Positions 7,719 to 41,240 of a DNA stretch of 64,000 bases are shown here, one piece after another. The first letter of the stretch is position 1; every line of letters begins with the position of its first letter. This DNA comes from an uncultured virus (IMG/VR IMGVR_UViG_3300021495_000067) (lineage: Duplodnaviria > Heunggongvirae > Uroviricota > Caudoviricetes). Both the position numbers and the translations under genes were made by a program. The stretch is taken from the IMG/VR virus record IMGVR_UViG_3300021495_000067. The stretch is one strand, 5' to 3'. The notes below the pieces were generated by a model. It was given only the letters and a program-made list of their open reading frames with translations, was not told the DNA's origin and did not search any database.

Positions 7719-8306
7719 CTAACCTTCATACTCCTCATTATAGGAACTAAACTGCATTTTTGTTATAATCAATTTTAAAACATATAACGGGAAACGAGGA
7801 TGCTTTCTGAGCAGATATAGCAGATTACCAAACTCTGTCTTTGGCTTAATCTTTTTATGCGGATAATGATAAACACAATCTCTGCTCAATCTTATAATCT
7901 TATACCCTTTCTCAACTGCTCTTATACACCATTCTGTTTCATCACCATGCGCTCTCTCATCAAATTTGCCTATTTCAATCCATGTAGATTTCGCAAACAT
8001 CATTAATCGCCCGATTACAAAAGGACTTGGATAATAAGCCTCTAACCCGATTATAGCATGTTCATCCGCAAGCTCTCGTAACAACCCTAAGAAATTTTCG
8101 CTAAACTCAATATCGTCATCGCACAAAATAATCCATTTTCTCGTAGCACGGCAAATACCATTATTTCTCGCTGCACCGAGTGGCTTTTCATGTGAAATAA
8201 TAATTTCACATTCTTTAGGAATGGAATTGATAGTATGGATTGTTTGCCTATTCGTTGGTATTACAAAGCTAATATCAGATAAATCAACAGGATTTTTTCT
8301 CATCAT
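7719..8306 (-). CDS. Glycosyltransferase family 2 (GT-A)
   Basis: ISFVIPT, GAARNNG, LCDDD (DxD), GKFDE and GDETEW motifs. Confidence 0.9.
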   Translation of the reverse strand: MMRKNPVDLSDISFVIPTNRQTIHTINSIPKECEIIISHEKPLGAARNNGICRATRKWIILCDDDIEFSENFLGLLRELADEHAIIGLEAYYPSPFVIGRLMMFAKSTWIEIGKFDERAHGDETEWCIRAVEKGYKIIRLSRDCVYHYPHKKIKPKTEFGNLLYLLRKHPRFPLYVLKLIITKMQFSSYNEEYEG

Positions 8307-29230: not shown

Positions 29231-29671
29231 TCACCCCATGCATAACATAGGCATAAACTCGTGCCTATGTTCCCAGATTTTCCTGATAAACCAGCCCTGC
29301 ATGTTTCTCTTTGCATTAATTAAGTAATTCTGCTCAAACCACAGCACCGGATTTTCTCTCACTGTCATTAACGGTATCATTATTGGGGTTGGTGCTCTTG
29401 TAAACTTCGTATATTTCTTATTTCTCTTTCCTCTGATTCTTAGATATTCCTTTTCCCATCTGGGTCTTATCACAAACGAAGACCCATTAGCCTCTATAAA
29501 AAACTCTCCATTACGATACAATACGCTACGATTCAGAACAACCTCTTTCTTCCCTAAGAAAAGGATTTTTTTCTCCTTTTCTTGCTCTCGCTGTTCTTCG
29601 CTTACGACACGACCCACAGGCTCAGGCTCTTCAGCCCAAGCCTGTTCCAAAATTCGAGCCAATTCATCCAT
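29231..29671 (-). CDS. Hypothetical protein (true start probably MDELAR)
   Basis: AGGAGG RBS at 29681-29686. The longer ORF-track start runs into the tRNA-like RNA. Confidence 0.6.
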   Translation of the reverse strand: MDELARILEQAWAEEPEPVGRVVSEEQREQEKEKKILFLGKKEVVLNRSVLYRNGEFFIEANGSSFVIRPRWEKEYLRIRGKRNKKYTKFTRAPTPIMIPLMTVRENPVLWFEQNYLINAKRNMQGWFIRKIWEHRHEFMPMLCMG

Positions 29672-29696
29672 TTCTATCTTCCTCCTAATACGAGGA

Positions 29697-29853
29697 TGAA
29701 GGAGAAGGGAATTGAACCCTTGCACCCTCAGTAGAGGTAGCCAGCCTCTACCTTTCAGCTATCTGATGTGCTGGCGCAACACACCAGAATAGCCTACAAA
29801 CCTCAGACCTGCGCCCCGATCTGAGTTCAGGGGTGCCTACCACCAGCTCCTTC
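29697..29853 (-). ncRNA. tRNA-like structured RNA (about 157 nt) with acceptor stem, T-arm and three internal hairpins
   Basis: Acceptor stem GAAGGAG/CTCCTTC plus A; T-arm AAGGG-TTCAATT-CCCTT; helix GCACCC/GGGTGC; hairpins CTCAGATC/GGTCTGAG, TCTGGTGTG/CACATCAGA and GTAGAGG/CCTCTAC. Confidence 0.75.
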
Positions 29854-30155
29854 AAAAAATAAAAATTTGAAAATTTATCAGCCATATTCACAGGCTTCAT
29901 CATCCAGCTCCTCTGTCTCCACGATGCACCGTCCATGCATCGTCTTCCTCCTTTTTCTCACTCGCCCTGTGTTATAGGCAAAAAGGCGAGGAAGATTTCC
30001 TTTGTCCATAAGCATAACTTTTTGAGCCTCTTTTTTTTGAGCCACTCCTCCTACTGGCAGGAGCCTCACGAAGCTCATAGCCATGCTCCTTCACATGAAG
30101 GTCAGGCGAGTGTTTACCCCACCCGCCCTCATCGTAAATATGTTATTTTAAGGGG

Positions 30156-30554: not shown

Positions 30555-30623
30555 TATCTATCACCTCCTATATTTTATTTATTGGTAGAGGCTGTTCTCT
30601 ACCTTCTTTCACTAACTTATTGC

Positions 30624-31012: not shown

Positions 31013-32266
31013 TTATAATTTCTTATTTGAAATAGGAGCTACCTCTATTGGACCACGCCAGAACCTCAAGCCATTGGTTGGATAACCAGAACCATCGCCC
31101 TTTCCTGCTGCCCATGGATGTATTGTTCCATCCCAGTATGTCGTCATGTATGGTAGTTCTTTCCTTATATCTCTCTTCCTTACATCTCCTTCTACTAAGT
31201 TCAGGTGCTCCATATATGTTACAAGTGTATATATTCTTTTCTCTTCTGGAGAGCCGAATCCGAAGACATCTGCTGGTTCTTTCTCTCCTGTTTCCCAGAA
31301 TTCATAAATTAACTTATCTATTGGCTCTATAGACAACTTCCGACCTACTATATTATATTCTACTTCTTTTAGTAGGTCACAGAGGAAGGTCTTAGAGAAT
31401 GCTTCAATGTCTTCTCTGTTCCTTCTATGTATCACCAAAAGATTTCTTTTGGTGAATTCTCGTTTTAATGCCTCCAGAAGCGTGAAGTAGAAATATTTTG
31501 TTTTATGAGAATCTAAAGTTTTATCAATAACAAGGAAAAGATTTTCTCTATATGCTATATGCCCAACCCGTTTCGCTATTTTTGTAATTTCTTGGTTAAT
31601 TATTTGCTTTCTTCGTTCTCTCAAGGTTTTTAATCGAGTAAGAAGATGCCAATAGTTTTCGGGTTTTAAGCCTTGTTTTTTGCGTTTTGCAATTGCCGAT
31701 TCCAATTTTTTAATTTCAATATCATAATTTGTGATTTTCTCTCTTGCTCTTTTTGGATTCTTAGTAATAACTTTTTGTAATTTCCCTTGACTATTTTTCT
31801 TTGTTACTGGTGCAAGTATCTTCTTTATAGATGGGAACTTAGCATCTGAGCCTTGAGGATAAGTTTTCCACCTATAATTCCTATCTAATTCTACAAATCC
31901 TCTATATGCCCTTCTTATAGCCCTTGCCCTATTAATAGGATGTTTAAATACCAAGCTGATTTTGCATTTCTGTTGTGTTAATTTTTGTTTAATGCGTATC
32001 AATTTCAAGTCGTCCCAATTAAAACTAAATGGTATTTGTATTTTTAATTTGTTTTGAGGAAAGATGATAGTATTTTGCTCCTTATCAAATTTAAGAGAGG
32101 ATTTAGGAACTGTATAGCATTTTTTTGCTTGAGGTTTTTTGTTATAGGTGCGATAAATTGCATTTTCACCTTTTTTGAATCTCCTAATTTCATTGAATAT
32201 TTGATAGTATAGGACAGGCTCATGTTCTCTGGATATTTCAAATACTCTTGTCCCGTAGATGCTCAT
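31013..32266 (-). CDS. Degenerate TnpB/Cas12f-like protein
   Basis: WED-like strands (IIFPQNKLKIQIP...IRIKQ...KISLVFK), GFVELD at the RuvC-I position, long basic bridge helices, LVIDKTL at RuvC-II, then YFTLLEALKREFTKRNLLVI and FSKTFLC. Confidence 0.5.
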   Translation of the reverse strand: MSIYGTRVFEISREHEPVLYYQIFNEIRRFKKGENAIYRTYNKKPQAKKCYTVPKSSLKFDKEQNTIIFPQNKLKIQIPFSFNWDDLKLIRIKQKLTQQKCKISLVFKHPINRARAIRRAYRGFVELDRNYRWKTYPQGSDAKFPSIKKILAPVTKKNSQGKLQKVITKNPKRAREKITNYDIEIKKLESAIAKRKKQGLKPENYWHLLTRLKTLRERRKQIINQEITKIAKRVGHIAYRENLFLVIDKTLDSHKTKYFYFTLLEALKREFTKRNLLVIHRRNREDIEAFSKTFLCDLLKEVEYNIVGRKLSIEPIDKLIYEFWETGEKEPADVFGFGSPEEKRIYTLVTYMEHLNLVEGDVRKRDIRKELPYMTTYWDGTIHPWAAGKGDGSGYPTNGLRFWRGPIEVAPISNKKL

Positions 32267-32295: not shown

Positions 32296-32312
32296 GTTAT
32301 ATAAAAAGGTTT
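32296..32312 (-). promoter_or_regulatory. TATA-box promoter of the TnpB-like gene
   Basis: AAACCTTTTTATATAAC, followed by an AGGAGG RBS. Confidence 0.55.
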
Positions 32313-33204
32313 ATTGTGATATAAACCTCAACCTAATATCCCTGCTCCCCGTTCCCTGGTTGATAGGCACACCAGCAACAATATTCTCATTTACCCCTCT
32401 CAATTCATCAGTCATGCCCTGTATAGCTGCATAAAGCAAAACATTCATGGTTTCTTCAAATGCCATTCTCATTATTACTGAGCTTTTATTCTTCATTACT
32501 CCTATCCTGCTTAAACTTTTTACTTCACCATCCTTTGTCATCATGTCTGCGATAAGTATGATATGCCGAATATCAACATTGAGACCTTCAGATTGGTAAA
32601 TATCATAAAGTTGCTCGATAATGGATTGTCGTGCTGCCTCTATACCGAGAATCTGTTCAATTTCTCTGATATTGTTTGTGGTTGTTCTTTTAGCATCTAT
32701 ACCTTTAATTTTCAGAACCTCACGAAGATTACTTCCTTCTGTGTATATTACTCTTTTGTCTTGGTTGTATTGTGCTAATTTTATACCTCTTACTTCTTGG
32801 ATTTCTTTCAATACCACATCAGGATTCCTGCTACCATCTAAAACAATTTGCATTCTCGGATACTTAATATTCCATGTTGCGTTGATTATTTCCTGAACTC
32901 TTTGTAAACCACCAGTTGTATGTCCAAACGAAACCCCTGCATAGTGAAAAGTTCTCAATATCATCTGCGTCGAGGGCTCTCCGAGTGATTGCGCAGCTAC
33001 AACTCCAACTGCATCACCTGCTTCAACCTTTGCCTGTTCATATTCAGTTTTTATCCTTTTCAATGCCTTCCTAATCTTTTCAGTAGAGAGCCCTGGATTG
33101 TTGTATTTCATAAGTTTTTCAATCGTTTCGATTTGTATCGCTTCAGGTAGTTCGTGTAACTCATTCCTTACTAACTTCTCAATAAATTCTCTTGTATGTT
33201 TCAT
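32311..33204 (-). CDS. rpoA2: DNA-directed RNA polymerase subunit A'' (Rpo1C), internally shortened
   Basis: GDAVGVVAAQSLGEPSTQMILRTFHYAG (trigger loop), TEGSNL, TTTNNIREI, LGIEAAR, VDIRHIILIADMMT, AFEET and ENIVAG..GTG. Confidence 0.95.
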   Translation of the reverse strand: MKHTREFIEKLVRNELHELPEAIQIETIEKLMKYNNPGLSTEKIRKALKRIKTEYEQAKVEAGDAVGVVAAQSLGEPSTQMILRTFHYAGVSFGHTTGGLQRVQEIINATWNIKYPRMQIVLDGSRNPDVVLKEIQEVRGIKLAQYNQDKRVIYTEGSNLREVLKIKGIDAKRTTTNNIREIEQILGIEAARQSIIEQLYDIYQSEGLNVDIRHIILIADMMTKDGEVKSLSRIGVMKNKSSVIMRMAFEETMNVLLYAAIQGMTDELRGVNENIVAGVPINQGTGSRDIRLRFISQ

Positions 33205-34209: not shown

Positions 34210-34518
34210 TCACCTCCTATATCCTTGAAACATCCATTTTCCATCCAGCCACAAAATAGTATGCACAAGTTTATGGCAATGCTCGCATAAAGGATAAAGG
34301 TTCTCATCACTTGCATCACCATTAGGTATCCTGTGATGGATTATGCAATGCTTCTCACGATTACATAGATAGCATCTGTAATTCCATTTTTTCAGTATTC
34401 GCTCTCGTGTTTTGTCATTAACCTCTTCTTTTTTCCTATCTAACTCCATTAATCCATTTGACACATCCTTCGTTAAGAACATTAATCGCTCATAATTGAA
34501 ACTCATTCCACAATCCAC
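34210..34518 (-). CDS. HNH endonuclease
   Basis: CYLC...IHHRIP...NLYPLCEHCHKLVH. Confidence 0.88.
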   Translation of the reverse strand: MDCGMSFNYERLMFLTKDVSNGLMELDRKKEEVNDKTRERILKKWNYRCYLCNREKHCIIHHRIPNGDASDENLYPLCEHCHKLVHTILWLDGKWMFQGYRR

Positions 34519-35069
34519 CCCACAAGATGTTCCCTTATCTCCTTTTTCTCGTCTTTATCGAAAGGGATATTCAGGTAATACTTCATAGCTGTTGGTTCAC
34601 TATGTCCCTGGCACATGGCTATCAGTGGAATACTCTCAGGATATGTCGCTACCAACCAAGATTCATAGGTCTTTCTGAAAGTCTTTACTGATAAGGTTGC
34701 ATCCTTTGGCACTTCCAATTTGCTTCTTTTCAGTGCAGTTTTTAGCATCCCATCAAATGCTATGTAGGAAGGATATTTGTATCCATCCTCAAATAGCCTA
34801 TCAACCGCAACCTTGCCGAGCCTTGTGAGATAGATATACCTATCAGGTGTTACTCTCTTTCTCTTTCTATCTGCTATCCGTGGCAAGTGAATAATTTTCT
34901 TTTCGCTTTCATACCAGTGAGGATTCAATGCGAATTTTTGCATCTCTGCATATCTCATGCCTGTATAAAGCAAAGCATCACTCAATACTCTATGTCTGAC
35001 TTTCATTGCACCTCTCAACTTCTCATACTCACTCGGTGTTAGTATGACTATACCATTCTTTTGATACAT
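34503..35069 (-). CDS. Tyrosine recombinase/integrase, catalytic domain only
   Basis: LYTGMRYAE (R), KTFRKT (K/H-x-x-R), QGHS and MKYY. Start set at MYQKNG. Confidence 0.85.
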   Translation of the reverse strand: MYQKNGIVILTPSEYEKLRGAMKVRHRVLSDALLYTGMRYAEMQKFALNPHWYESEKKIIHLPRIADRKRKRVTPDRYIYLTRLGKVAVDRLFEDGYKYPSYIAFDGMLKTALKRSKLEVPKDATLSVKTFRKTYESWLVATYPESIPLIAMCQGHSEPTAMKYYLNIPFDKDEKKEIREHLVGWIVE

Positions 35070-35499
35070 TCCCTTAATTATTAATATTATACCCCTTATA
35101 TATAAAGGTTTTAATTGTGGTTGTAAGGTTACCATAAAAGACCTATTCAGAGGGTTTAAAAATAAACTCTGAGAAGAGTTTTTACAGAAATCCTTAATAT
35201 TTTACCATAGGATATTAAAAGGAAATTAAGCTTTTTGCTTCCATATCAAATTGAAGATGTCAAGGTTATTGCCCCCCTTCAACCATCACCTCTTCCTTGC
35301 ACCAATCCTTAACCTCAGAGCAATTTATCTTCATATCCACCGCTGGAAGTTCACCAGTCCAGTTTTGTTTCTGGCAGGATTTACAGATGGTGATTTTCTG
35401 TTGTTCAGCGATAAGATGTCCGAGATAGACTATGTAAAAGAGGAAGAGAGAAATTACTATCACTTCTAATATTTTAAATGCTTTCATTTTATCAGCTTC

Positions 35500-40199: not shown

Positions 40200-40565
40200 T
40201 ATGGTTTATATGTTTATACATTTTGATAAATGTATAAACATTTTATACATTTATACATTGGTATAAATGATTCAATAATATCCTCTCTATTACCATTCTT
40301 AATATCCTTATTTTCACCATTTACCAGACTAATAAGAACATTCAGAATAAAAGAATCTGAATGTCTTACTCTTATTGAGATTCAATCTTACTGAGATTTA
40401 GTTAATCTCAGTAAGAGTCTATTTCTTTGTTTAATAGTCTATTTAATTATCTATCAGTTTTTTTCTTTTCAGCTTTTTAAATTTTAAAAAGCTGAAAAGA
40501 ATTAATTATTATATATCTATTATATATTAATTCCGCCCAGCTTTTTAAATTTTAAAAAGCTGAAC
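40200..40565. repeat. AT-rich cluster of inverted repeats (candidate origin or control region 2)
   Basis: IR ATGTTTATACATTT/AAATGTATAAACAT near 40210-40241; IR TCTTACTGAGATT/AATCTCAGTAAGA 40386-40416; 19-bp IR 40463-40501 whose 25-bp core recurs at 40538-40562. Confidence 0.75.
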
Positions 40566-41240
40566 TCAATCTCTCATCATATCCATTATTTTGGTTATTT
40601 TTTCCTTCTCTAAGGTTATTCTGTAAAATTTAGTTCCTCTTTCTCCTTTATAGCTCCTTAGTAATCCCACCTCTTCAAACTTTTTAAGGTAATCATAGCT
40701 CTTATTCCATTTCAAACCTGTTATCTCTCTAAATTTACTGGCTGTTAATTCTTCGTTCTCTGAGAAATACCTTATTAAATCCAGAGCAAAGGGTATTCTT
40801 AAAATCTCAAATAAGTTTGTTTTTGGCTCTGATCTATCTTCCTTTGGTGTAGGATATAGAAATTCTGTGAGGGTATCCCTTAAACTTTTTATACTACTTT
40901 TTGAGAGTTGAATTCGCATATTAATCATGCTATAATCCTTATCCTTGATAGGTGCAATATCATCGTTCTTAACAACTGCTGTCCATACCAGAGTAAAATG
41001 CTTTCTTTTATTCTTTTTGTCTCTTACTGAGTATTCAAGAATATTCTCGCCTTGTAATGTTTTTATTTGTCCTAAATGCTTGTAGGTATGTTTGTTTTGG
41101 GGCTCTTTAAAATCTACGAATGGTGGTAGCTCTTTAAATCTAAGTAAATCATCATCGCCTGTGATTTCTACGGATAGTTTCCCTGTTTTTATGCCATCAA
41201 CAATTCTTATGGCTGGATTTCTGCTTTCTATTACTTTCAT
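40566..41240 (-). CDS. Protein with C-terminal ArsR-like winged helix
   Basis: LTASKFREITGLKWNKSYDYLKKFEEVGLL..YKGERGTKFYRIT. Confidence 0.7.
   Translation of the reverse strand: MKVIESRNPAIRIVDGIKTGKLSVEITGDDDLLRFKELPPFVDFKEPQNKHTYKHLGQIKTLQGENILEYSVRDKKNKRKHFTLVWTAVVKNDDIAPIKDKDYSMINMRIQLSKSSIKSLRDTLTEFLYPTPKEDRSEPKTNLFEILRIPFALDLIRYFSENEELTASKFREITGLKWNKSYDYLKKFEEVGLLRSYKGERGTKFYRITLEKEKITKIMDMMRD

Follow-up and report, generated by a model that had tools for sequence, protein, structure and literature searches.

Genomic setting

The window analysed here, that is, the whole stretch of 64,000 nucleotides, encodes (according to an ORF scan) a family B polymerase, two clamp-loader-like ATPases and a resolvase, together with an intein-containing anaerobic ribonucleotide reductase and with DUF2341 and tape-measure-like proteins; ribosome-binding sites of the form GGAGGTGA recur along it. 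Judged by this gene content and by the ribosome-binding sites, the window is part of an archaeal virus. Among the 24 sequencing runs listed, which include no RNA run, all three that contain at least half of the words of the region are hydrothermal vent metagenomes, and the source of the RNA described below is an uncultured virus of deep-sea archaea.

Several other features of the window may be mentioned. A minus-strand gene (32311-33204) specifies a stand-alone, shortened archaeal RNA polymerase A''-like subunit of 297 aa, whose 38 full-length relatives (292-327 aa, 48-94% identity) make up a clade of their own that is probably viral. A very AT-rich stretch with long inverted repeats (40300-40600, z -6 to -10) is a possible replication origin. 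Genes for a protein mannosyltransferase-like protein and a family 2 glycosyltransferase occupy positions 761-2368 and 7719-8306 (minus strand), and an ORF at 34503-35135 weakly matches tyrosine recombinases.

Structure of the tRNA-like RNA

Positions 29853-29697 of the minus strand specify a predicted tRNA-like RNA of 157 nt, running from G1 (29853) to a discriminator A (29697) and recognisable from its sequence, its fold and its homologues. The minimum free energy (MFE) and centroid structures agree on a 7-bp acceptor stem, a 6-bp closing helix, three hairpins and a T-arm, with a fold energy of -70.9 kcal/mol (z -3.27) that was equalled by 2 of 200 shuffles. The coordinates given in an earlier note on this DNA proved exact, and refolding returned the acceptor, discriminator A, T-arm, 6-bp helix and three hairpins that it had described.

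Read in the direction of the minus strand, the RNA is preceded by an A/U-rich leader (29854-29878) ending in six U residues, with a presumed RNase P site at 29854/29853; the last 8 nt of the leader are common to all three full sequences treated below. The 5' strand of the acceptor stem (29847-29853) leads, with no linker residues, into a mini D stem-loop of 3 bp and a 4-nt loop containing GG (29837-29846), which resembles the 10-nt D stem-loop of menRNA, and then into the 5' strand of the 6-bp helix at the anticodon position (29831-29836). Within this helix, strands of five (29826-29830) and two (29728-29729) nucleotides, seven in total, flank the insert, or cargo. These junction strands are similar to the anticodon loop of tRNA-Phe, and are perhaps the trace of an ancestral tRNA. 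The cargo consists of hairpin 1 (29802-29825, 8 bp, loop 29817-29810), an 8-nt linker (29794-29801) with UGUAG at its end (29798-29794), directly before the next hairpin, hairpin 2 (29758-29793, about 13 bp, loop 29779-29771) and hairpin 3 (29730-29752, 8 bp, loop 29744-29738). The 3' strand of the closing helix (29722-29727) abuts the T-stem, leaving no variable loop, and the T-arm (29705-29721; 5 bp and a canonical 7-nt T-loop) is identical in the three full sequences. The acceptor 3' strand and discriminator A (29697-29704) complete the molecule; as had been seen earlier, no CCA is encoded. The 3' trailer (29680-29696), read from the sequence, can form a 5-bp hairpin that masks the Shine-Dalgarno site belonging to the following ORF, which starts at 29671. 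No TATA-like box common to the alleles was found by eye in the 35 nt upstream. An anticodon-like hairpin extending over hairpin 1 was also considered and rejected, being disfavoured in folding.

The 6-bp Watson-Crick run between the loops of hairpins 1 and 2, and the UGUAG in the linker, both pointed out before, are present. When the loop letters were permuted 200,000 times, such a run arose between loops 1 and 2 in 0.6% of cases and between any pair of loops in 1.3%; UGUNR is expected by chance in 4% of 8-nt linkers. All three figures are post hoc. In the MFE structure loop 2 is closed, with a triloop at its apex; opening loops 1 and 2 costs 5.1 kcal/mol, as against -11.6 for the loop-loop duplex when loop strain is omitted. 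Loop 2 has an overlapping second partner in loop 3, with which it can form 5 bp. A stem like that of hairpin 3 has two matches in the window against 0.03 expected, and a nearly identical stem occurs in an 8-bp hairpin between genes (30584-30603), immediately ahead of a ribosome-binding site.

Homologues and the conserved frame

Neither a tRNA nor a tmRNA is detected in the window by ARAGORN, and no Rfam family matches the window at the cut-off. Below the cut-off, the best of the 18 matches listed (E up to 10, two same-clan overlaps having been left out) is to mascRNA-menRNA, with 25.5 bits (cut-off 42.5). A scan of metagenomes for the T-arm and acceptor motif yielded at least two full homologues, here called L250 and L255; most of the other loci among the 125 listed are tRNA-Gly, and further homologues in metagenomes are likely to exist. 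Both homologues keep the U-run of the leader, the acceptor stem, the D region, the closing helix, the T-arm, the discriminator and the first bases of the trailer, whose pairing over the Shine-Dalgarno site is likewise possible in both according to the alignments. In both an ORF ends just upstream of the element, and L255 shares the downstream gene of the window, whereas L250 has another one. When a covariance model was trained on just L250 and L255, it matched the window element over its full length with 46 bits (E 5e-8) in a search space of 961 kb from 53 sources.

The acceptor stem and T-arm of the two homologues are identical to those of the window at 32 of 32 and 31 of 32 positions. Over the 21 pairs of the frame, all 63 cells of the three full sequences are intact. 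Five frame pairs vary among these sequences, two of which are close kin: 3 of the 21 pairs, including pairs 5 and 6 of the closing helix in L250 and L255, are changed on both sides with pairing kept. Since L250 and L255 are kin, these two-sided changes amount to about two independent events. Position 3:70 is A-U in all three sequences, so the reported absence of a G3:U70 pair holds, and none of the reading frames stays open through the three alleles, in agreement with the lack of a tag ORF stated before.

It is the D region for which the earlier description has to be revised. What had been read as an unpaired D-loop is a 10-nt region made up of a 3-bp stem and a 4-nt GG loop, with pair probabilities of 0.70-0.75. 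The third pair of the stem varies among the full sequences, reading G.U, G-C and A-U, yet remains a pair in each, which argues for this very structure; a variant at 29839 in metagenome contigs converts the G.U to G-C. The GG lies within the 4-nt loop in all three, its register shifting by one. A 4-bp D-stem between positions 10-13 and 20-23 was rejected, having a probability of 0 and being broken in L250 and L255.

Searches elsewhere returned no homologue. Viral contigs gave none with the exact 5' motif and, among the matches listed for a loose 5' motif, 120 chance loci; a relaxed 5' motif gave 11 loci attributable to chance. None was found in GTDB genomes, annotated phages gave short tRNA matches only, and the neighbourhoods of the Rpo1C-like protein (including 49 distant loci) do not contain the element. 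Further motif scans returned 1 and 7 loci, none homologous, the 7 being bacterial loci judged by their titles to be chance matches. With three full sequences at hand, the element is a real, conserved and uncatalogued viral tRNA mimic.

Variation of the insert

What is conserved across the alleles is a linker-less four-way junction, into which unrelated or barely related inserts are set at the anticodon position. The insert measures 103 nt in the window allele (type A) and 56-57 nt in L250 and L255 (type B), where it forms a longer helix that ends in a loop rich in pyrimidines and containing CCUCC; pyrimidines make up 23/26 and 22/26 of the loop letters against a strand background of 0.40. The two types of insert are weakly similar: out of 1000 shuffles, 75 and 10 score as high in local alignment.

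Contigs from four of the 24 listed runs (X4, X9, X14 and X21) were compared with the window, the runs with small shares (X5-X8, X10-X13, X15-X20 and X22-X24) being left out. The window allele was found in all four. In X4 and X21, contigs span almost the entire element, with 19/156 and 18/162 substitutions and no gaps, whereas its flanks contain many indels; the 103-nt insert itself is gap-free at about 88% identity in both runs. Among the 40 of 177 substitutions listed, two fall inside the element (29839, and 29818 in hairpin 1) and both keep pairs. Other contigs carry other inserts. One from X21 joins 29721 to 29844 with different letters between, at most about 65 as estimated from record lengths; one from X14 passes into a third insert beyond the closing helix; and a loose end from X9 matches the type-B helix. 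The runs with these alternative inserts (X21, X14 and X9) also hold the window allele. We take the gap-free preservation of the type-A cargo to indicate that the cargo matters, and the coexistence of unlike cargos to indicate diversifying pressure. No target or partner of the cargo was found for either allele; matches elsewhere in the window are at most 11-12 nt long.

The upstream region and the TnpB-like neighbour

The element lies behind a structured non-coding stretch of about 260 nt on the same strand (29875-30135, z -6.4), possibly co-transcribed with it, for which Rfam gave no match. Among 20 listed variants in this stretch, nine are unpaired, seven keep pairs and four break them, and relatives replace the tips of its hairpins. 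A C/D-box reading of 29880-29905 was rejected, being lost in relatives (loose contig ends). By analogy with mascRNA, which forms the 3' end of MALAT1 in the same manner (PMC11693755), a cut before the tRNA-like RNA would create the 3' end of this upstream RNA.

About 880 bases further upstream, a minus-strand ORF of 417 aa (31013-32266) directly follows the RNA polymerase A''-like gene. The Atlas assigns it to TnpB/Cas12f with a score of 0.93, and the four best structural matches of its poorly modelled fold (pLDDT 48) are Cas12p, two Cas12f and TnpB (Z 6.5-7.2, residues 107-282); Foldseek, Pfam, NCBIfam and PDB sequence searches returned nothing significant. The protein looks TnpB/Cas12f-derived. 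Inspected by eye, its RuvC motifs seem altered and its C-terminal zinc-finger part seems replaced, and it has only three homologue clusters. The order of the two genes recalls RNA-guided transcription systems that are based on a dead Cas12f. No guide target of the upstream RNA was found in the window.

Comparison with known RNAs

The closest likeness is to mascRNA and menRNA (Rfam RF01684). Their shared features are a linker-less four-way junction with a 7-bp acceptor stem, a 10-nt D stem-loop with GG, no variable loop and a T-arm, all of which the viral RNA possesses; the features underlying the elbow, two G residues in the D loop and a C56-type T-loop, are present as well. As in the vertebrate RNAs, no CCA is encoded and the element stands behind another non-coding RNA. 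In the published description, menRNA has its acceptor at 1-7 and its D stem-loop at 8-17 without linkers, is cut by RNase P and RNase Z, and in the crystal is an L that the GG of its D-loop holds together with the help of the T-loop (PMC11693755). The differences concern the anticodon position, where mascRNA and menRNA have a short hairpin with a compact loop whereas the viral helix opens into a cargo of 56-103 nt, and the origin: the viral RNA is viral and archaeal, reaches 25.5 of the 42.5 bits required, and has no A-rich triple-helix tract upstream. As the cause of the resemblance, convergence is more likely than descent. Another parallel is offered by t-elements, which reportedly occur in plant mitochondria too. 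In the archaeon Haloferax volcanii, RNase P and tRNase Z process such tRNA-like elements in vivo (PMC4326828). Like them, the viral RNA combines acceptor and T-arm into a substrate presumed to be cleaved by these enzymes in an archaeal cell; unlike them, it has a conserved and exchangeable internal domain, and it is a predicted substrate only.

The earlier note had assigned the acceptor and T-arm to a tmRNA-type domain, and the two RNAs do share these parts as well as a large domain at the anticodon position. This identification has to be abandoned: the layout is that of menRNA/mascRNA, with a D mini-stem that is present and covarying and with no linker before the T-stem, position 3:70 is A-U instead of G.U, there is no tag frame, and ARAGORN reports nothing. 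The tmRNA score in Rfam is 16 bits as against 47, and covers the T-arm and acceptor end only. The source on tmRNA records that tmRNA-SmpB has not been identified in archaea, and describes an RNA of mycobacteriophage DS6A consisting of the tRNA-like domain only, a viral precedent for a tRNA-mimic decoy (PMC4131195). The more specific suggestion of an anticodon-nuclease decoy fits poorly with the alleles, none of which displays an anticodon loop.

Kissing-loop domains of the kind known from the signal recognition particle (SRP) usually have hairpins shorter than hairpins 1 and 2. In the SRP Alu domain a pair of hairpins have complementary loops, and a UGUNR motif stands just before the second (PMC4231752, PMC2905702), an arrangement that the type-A cargo matches in sequence. 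The Alu domain further has a three-way junction with helix 2, a helix 5 and an S domain, whereas the viral RNA lacks all of these and has a four-way junction instead; only non-canonical tandem-GA pairing, noticed by eye, could replace helix 2. The Alu marks are confined to one allele and missing in both full homologues, and no SRP family is among the 18 Rfam matches listed (E up to 10), so the view that an Alu-like kissing domain is the essence of the RNA finds no support.

Y RNAs of the YrlA type resemble the viral RNA in having a tRNA-mimic domain, recognised by tRNA enzymes, and in occurring in phages (PMC4201824). In YrlA, as described there, the acceptor stem is an internal hairpin and the gene adjoins that of Ro60. 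We rejected this identity: the acceptor of the viral RNA is formed by the ends of the RNA, there is no Rfam match, and no TROVE (Ro60) protein was found among the 55 larger window ORFs scanned. The small RNAs of the phage T4 tRNA region, RNAC and RNAD (species 1 and 2), are described as being of unknown function (PMC3014915, PMC9697503). Like the viral RNA, RNAC has a T-arm and internal hairpins in its fold, but its MFE structure does not combine a D mini-stem with a closing helix, and our model R1 finds no match in the T4 region. Engineered tRNA scaffolds, finally, carry a cargo RNA in the anticodon arm for stability and clean ends; the viral RNA differs from them in being natural, with a shrunken frame and with alleles that differ in cargo. 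In the literature searched, mostly articles outside subscription journals in their main text, we found no description of such an RNA.

Possible function

We give an even chance to the proposal that the element is a virus-encoded tRNA-mimic chassis which host RNase P and tRNase Z excise and which displays an exchangeable RNA cargo. It would be transcribed within a long minus-strand viral transcript, as the lack of a shared TATA-like box suggests; host RNase P would then cleave behind the U-run and tRNase Z behind the discriminator, and the CCA enzyme would add CCA. The L-shaped elbow would protect the product, which could persist as a non-decoding carrier, and the same cuts would form the end of the upstream RNA as well as the beginning of the downstream mRNA. 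The three hairpins of the type-A cargo probably close into a compact loop-loop domain, possibly a surface for a protein or the ribosome, whereas the open loop of type B with its CCUCC could pair with purine-rich Shine-Dalgarno regions. The weakest step concerns the role of the cargo, for which we propose interference with host translation or defence, with alleles swapped in the course of host-virus conflict; granted the chassis, this is less likely than not. Against a carrier it can be said that the U-run may be a terminator instead of a leader, that recombination alone can give conserved ends and a variable middle, and that the inserts are partly similar and only three full sequences are known.

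The main rival explanation is that the frame merely marks, like a t-element, where RNase P and tRNase Z are to cut, so that the upstream RNA (or an mRNA) gains its 3' end and the following mRNA its 5' end while the insert just folds away. Haloferax t-elements (PMC4326828) and mammalian mascRNA (PMC11693755) provide precedents as far as described there; moreover, the part read by the two enzymes is the most conserved, the inserts are interchangeable, and the frame stands behind differing upstream neighbours, a structured RNA in the window and ORFs in L250 and L255. An insert that was a mere bystander would be expected to shrink, yet in X4 and X21 the 103-nt insert is gap-free with an identity of about 88%, and the complementarity of its loops exceeds chance, for which reasons we consider a pure processing mark rather unlikely. 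A variant of this explanation has the upstream RNA serve the TnpB-like protein (31013-32266) as its guide or scaffold, against which stands the lack of a guide-target match in the window.

Three further explanations fare worse. That an SRP-Alu-like domain fused to the top half of a tRNA docks on the factor site of the ribosome and slows host translation is unlikely, given that no SRP family is among the 18 listed Rfam matches, that there is neither a Watson-Crick helix 2 nor a long helix 5, that loop 3 competes for loop 2, and that the domain is missing from both full homologues. DNA recombination would not require the two-sided, pair-keeping changes of the D mini-stem and closing helix, and L250 has a different downstream gene; a leader fold controlling the downstream gene, or a DNA cassette whose tRNA-derived ends serve as swapping points, is hence very unlikely, even though the acceptor 3' strand and the trailer can each pair with the downstream Shine-Dalgarno site, identical ends surround unlike middles, and the window has the weakly matching tyrosine-recombinase-like ORF (34503-35135). 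Least probable of all is a minimal tRNA with an odd intron, from which the 96-nt three-hairpin block (29825-29730) would be removed and the 5-nt and 2-nt strands joined as a 7-nt loop. Together the junction strands do make exactly 7 nt, beginning with pyrimidine-U and ending in purine-A, and C-U directly follows the 6-bp helix in all three alleles. No frame-compatible bulge-helix-bulge was found, however, the 10, 3 and 3 chance matches per allele (strict motif; relaxed by eye) all unfolding the frame, while ARAGORN finds nothing and the type-B helix simply continues. The product would lack D-arm linkers and a variable loop (10-nt D region, 0-nt variable loop), in this resembling the non-decoding mascRNA. 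With ARAGORN at zero, nothing at the Rfam cut-off and no bulge-helix-bulge, the earlier view of a viral tRNA mimic that is neither an ordinary nor an intron-containing tRNA is upheld.

Returning to the chassis with exchangeable cargo, we put forward, as a possible if doubtful extension, that it is a natural tRNA-scaffold cassette: a minimal, host-matured frame serving as a plug-in carrier of RNA effectors swapped among co-occurring viruses, an Alu-like kissing-loop in one case and an anti-Shine-Dalgarno loop in the other, which would act on the archaeal ribosome or on defence proteins, while the same cut may mature the RNA partner of the TnpB-derived protein. To our knowledge, non-coding RNAs encoded by archaeal viruses are barely known. 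The element places the four-way junction of mascRNA and menRNA outside vertebrates, and its distinctive trait is a menRNA-type frame that stays fixed while the cargo is swapped between close relatives. If the cargo is functional, this would be a natural version of the tRNA-scaffold trick and a new viral way of delivering RNA effectors.

Other tRNA-like loci

One of 31 descriptor matches, on a 119-kb phage contig (L121, 875-1030, plus strand; the same as L140, 1483-1638), combines a 7/7 acceptor, an 11-nt linker, the same 6-bp helix, a 103-nt insert and a T-arm. A D mini-stem is missing from it, its fold is weak (z -1.8) and its score of 21.7 bits is reached in a different register; it is a possible analogue of the element. 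A group I intron lies at 437-761 of the same contig. Several marine metagenome contigs (L166, L214, L225 and others) carry repeated tRNA-Gly 3' halves behind unrelated sequence, a pattern typical of integration sites.
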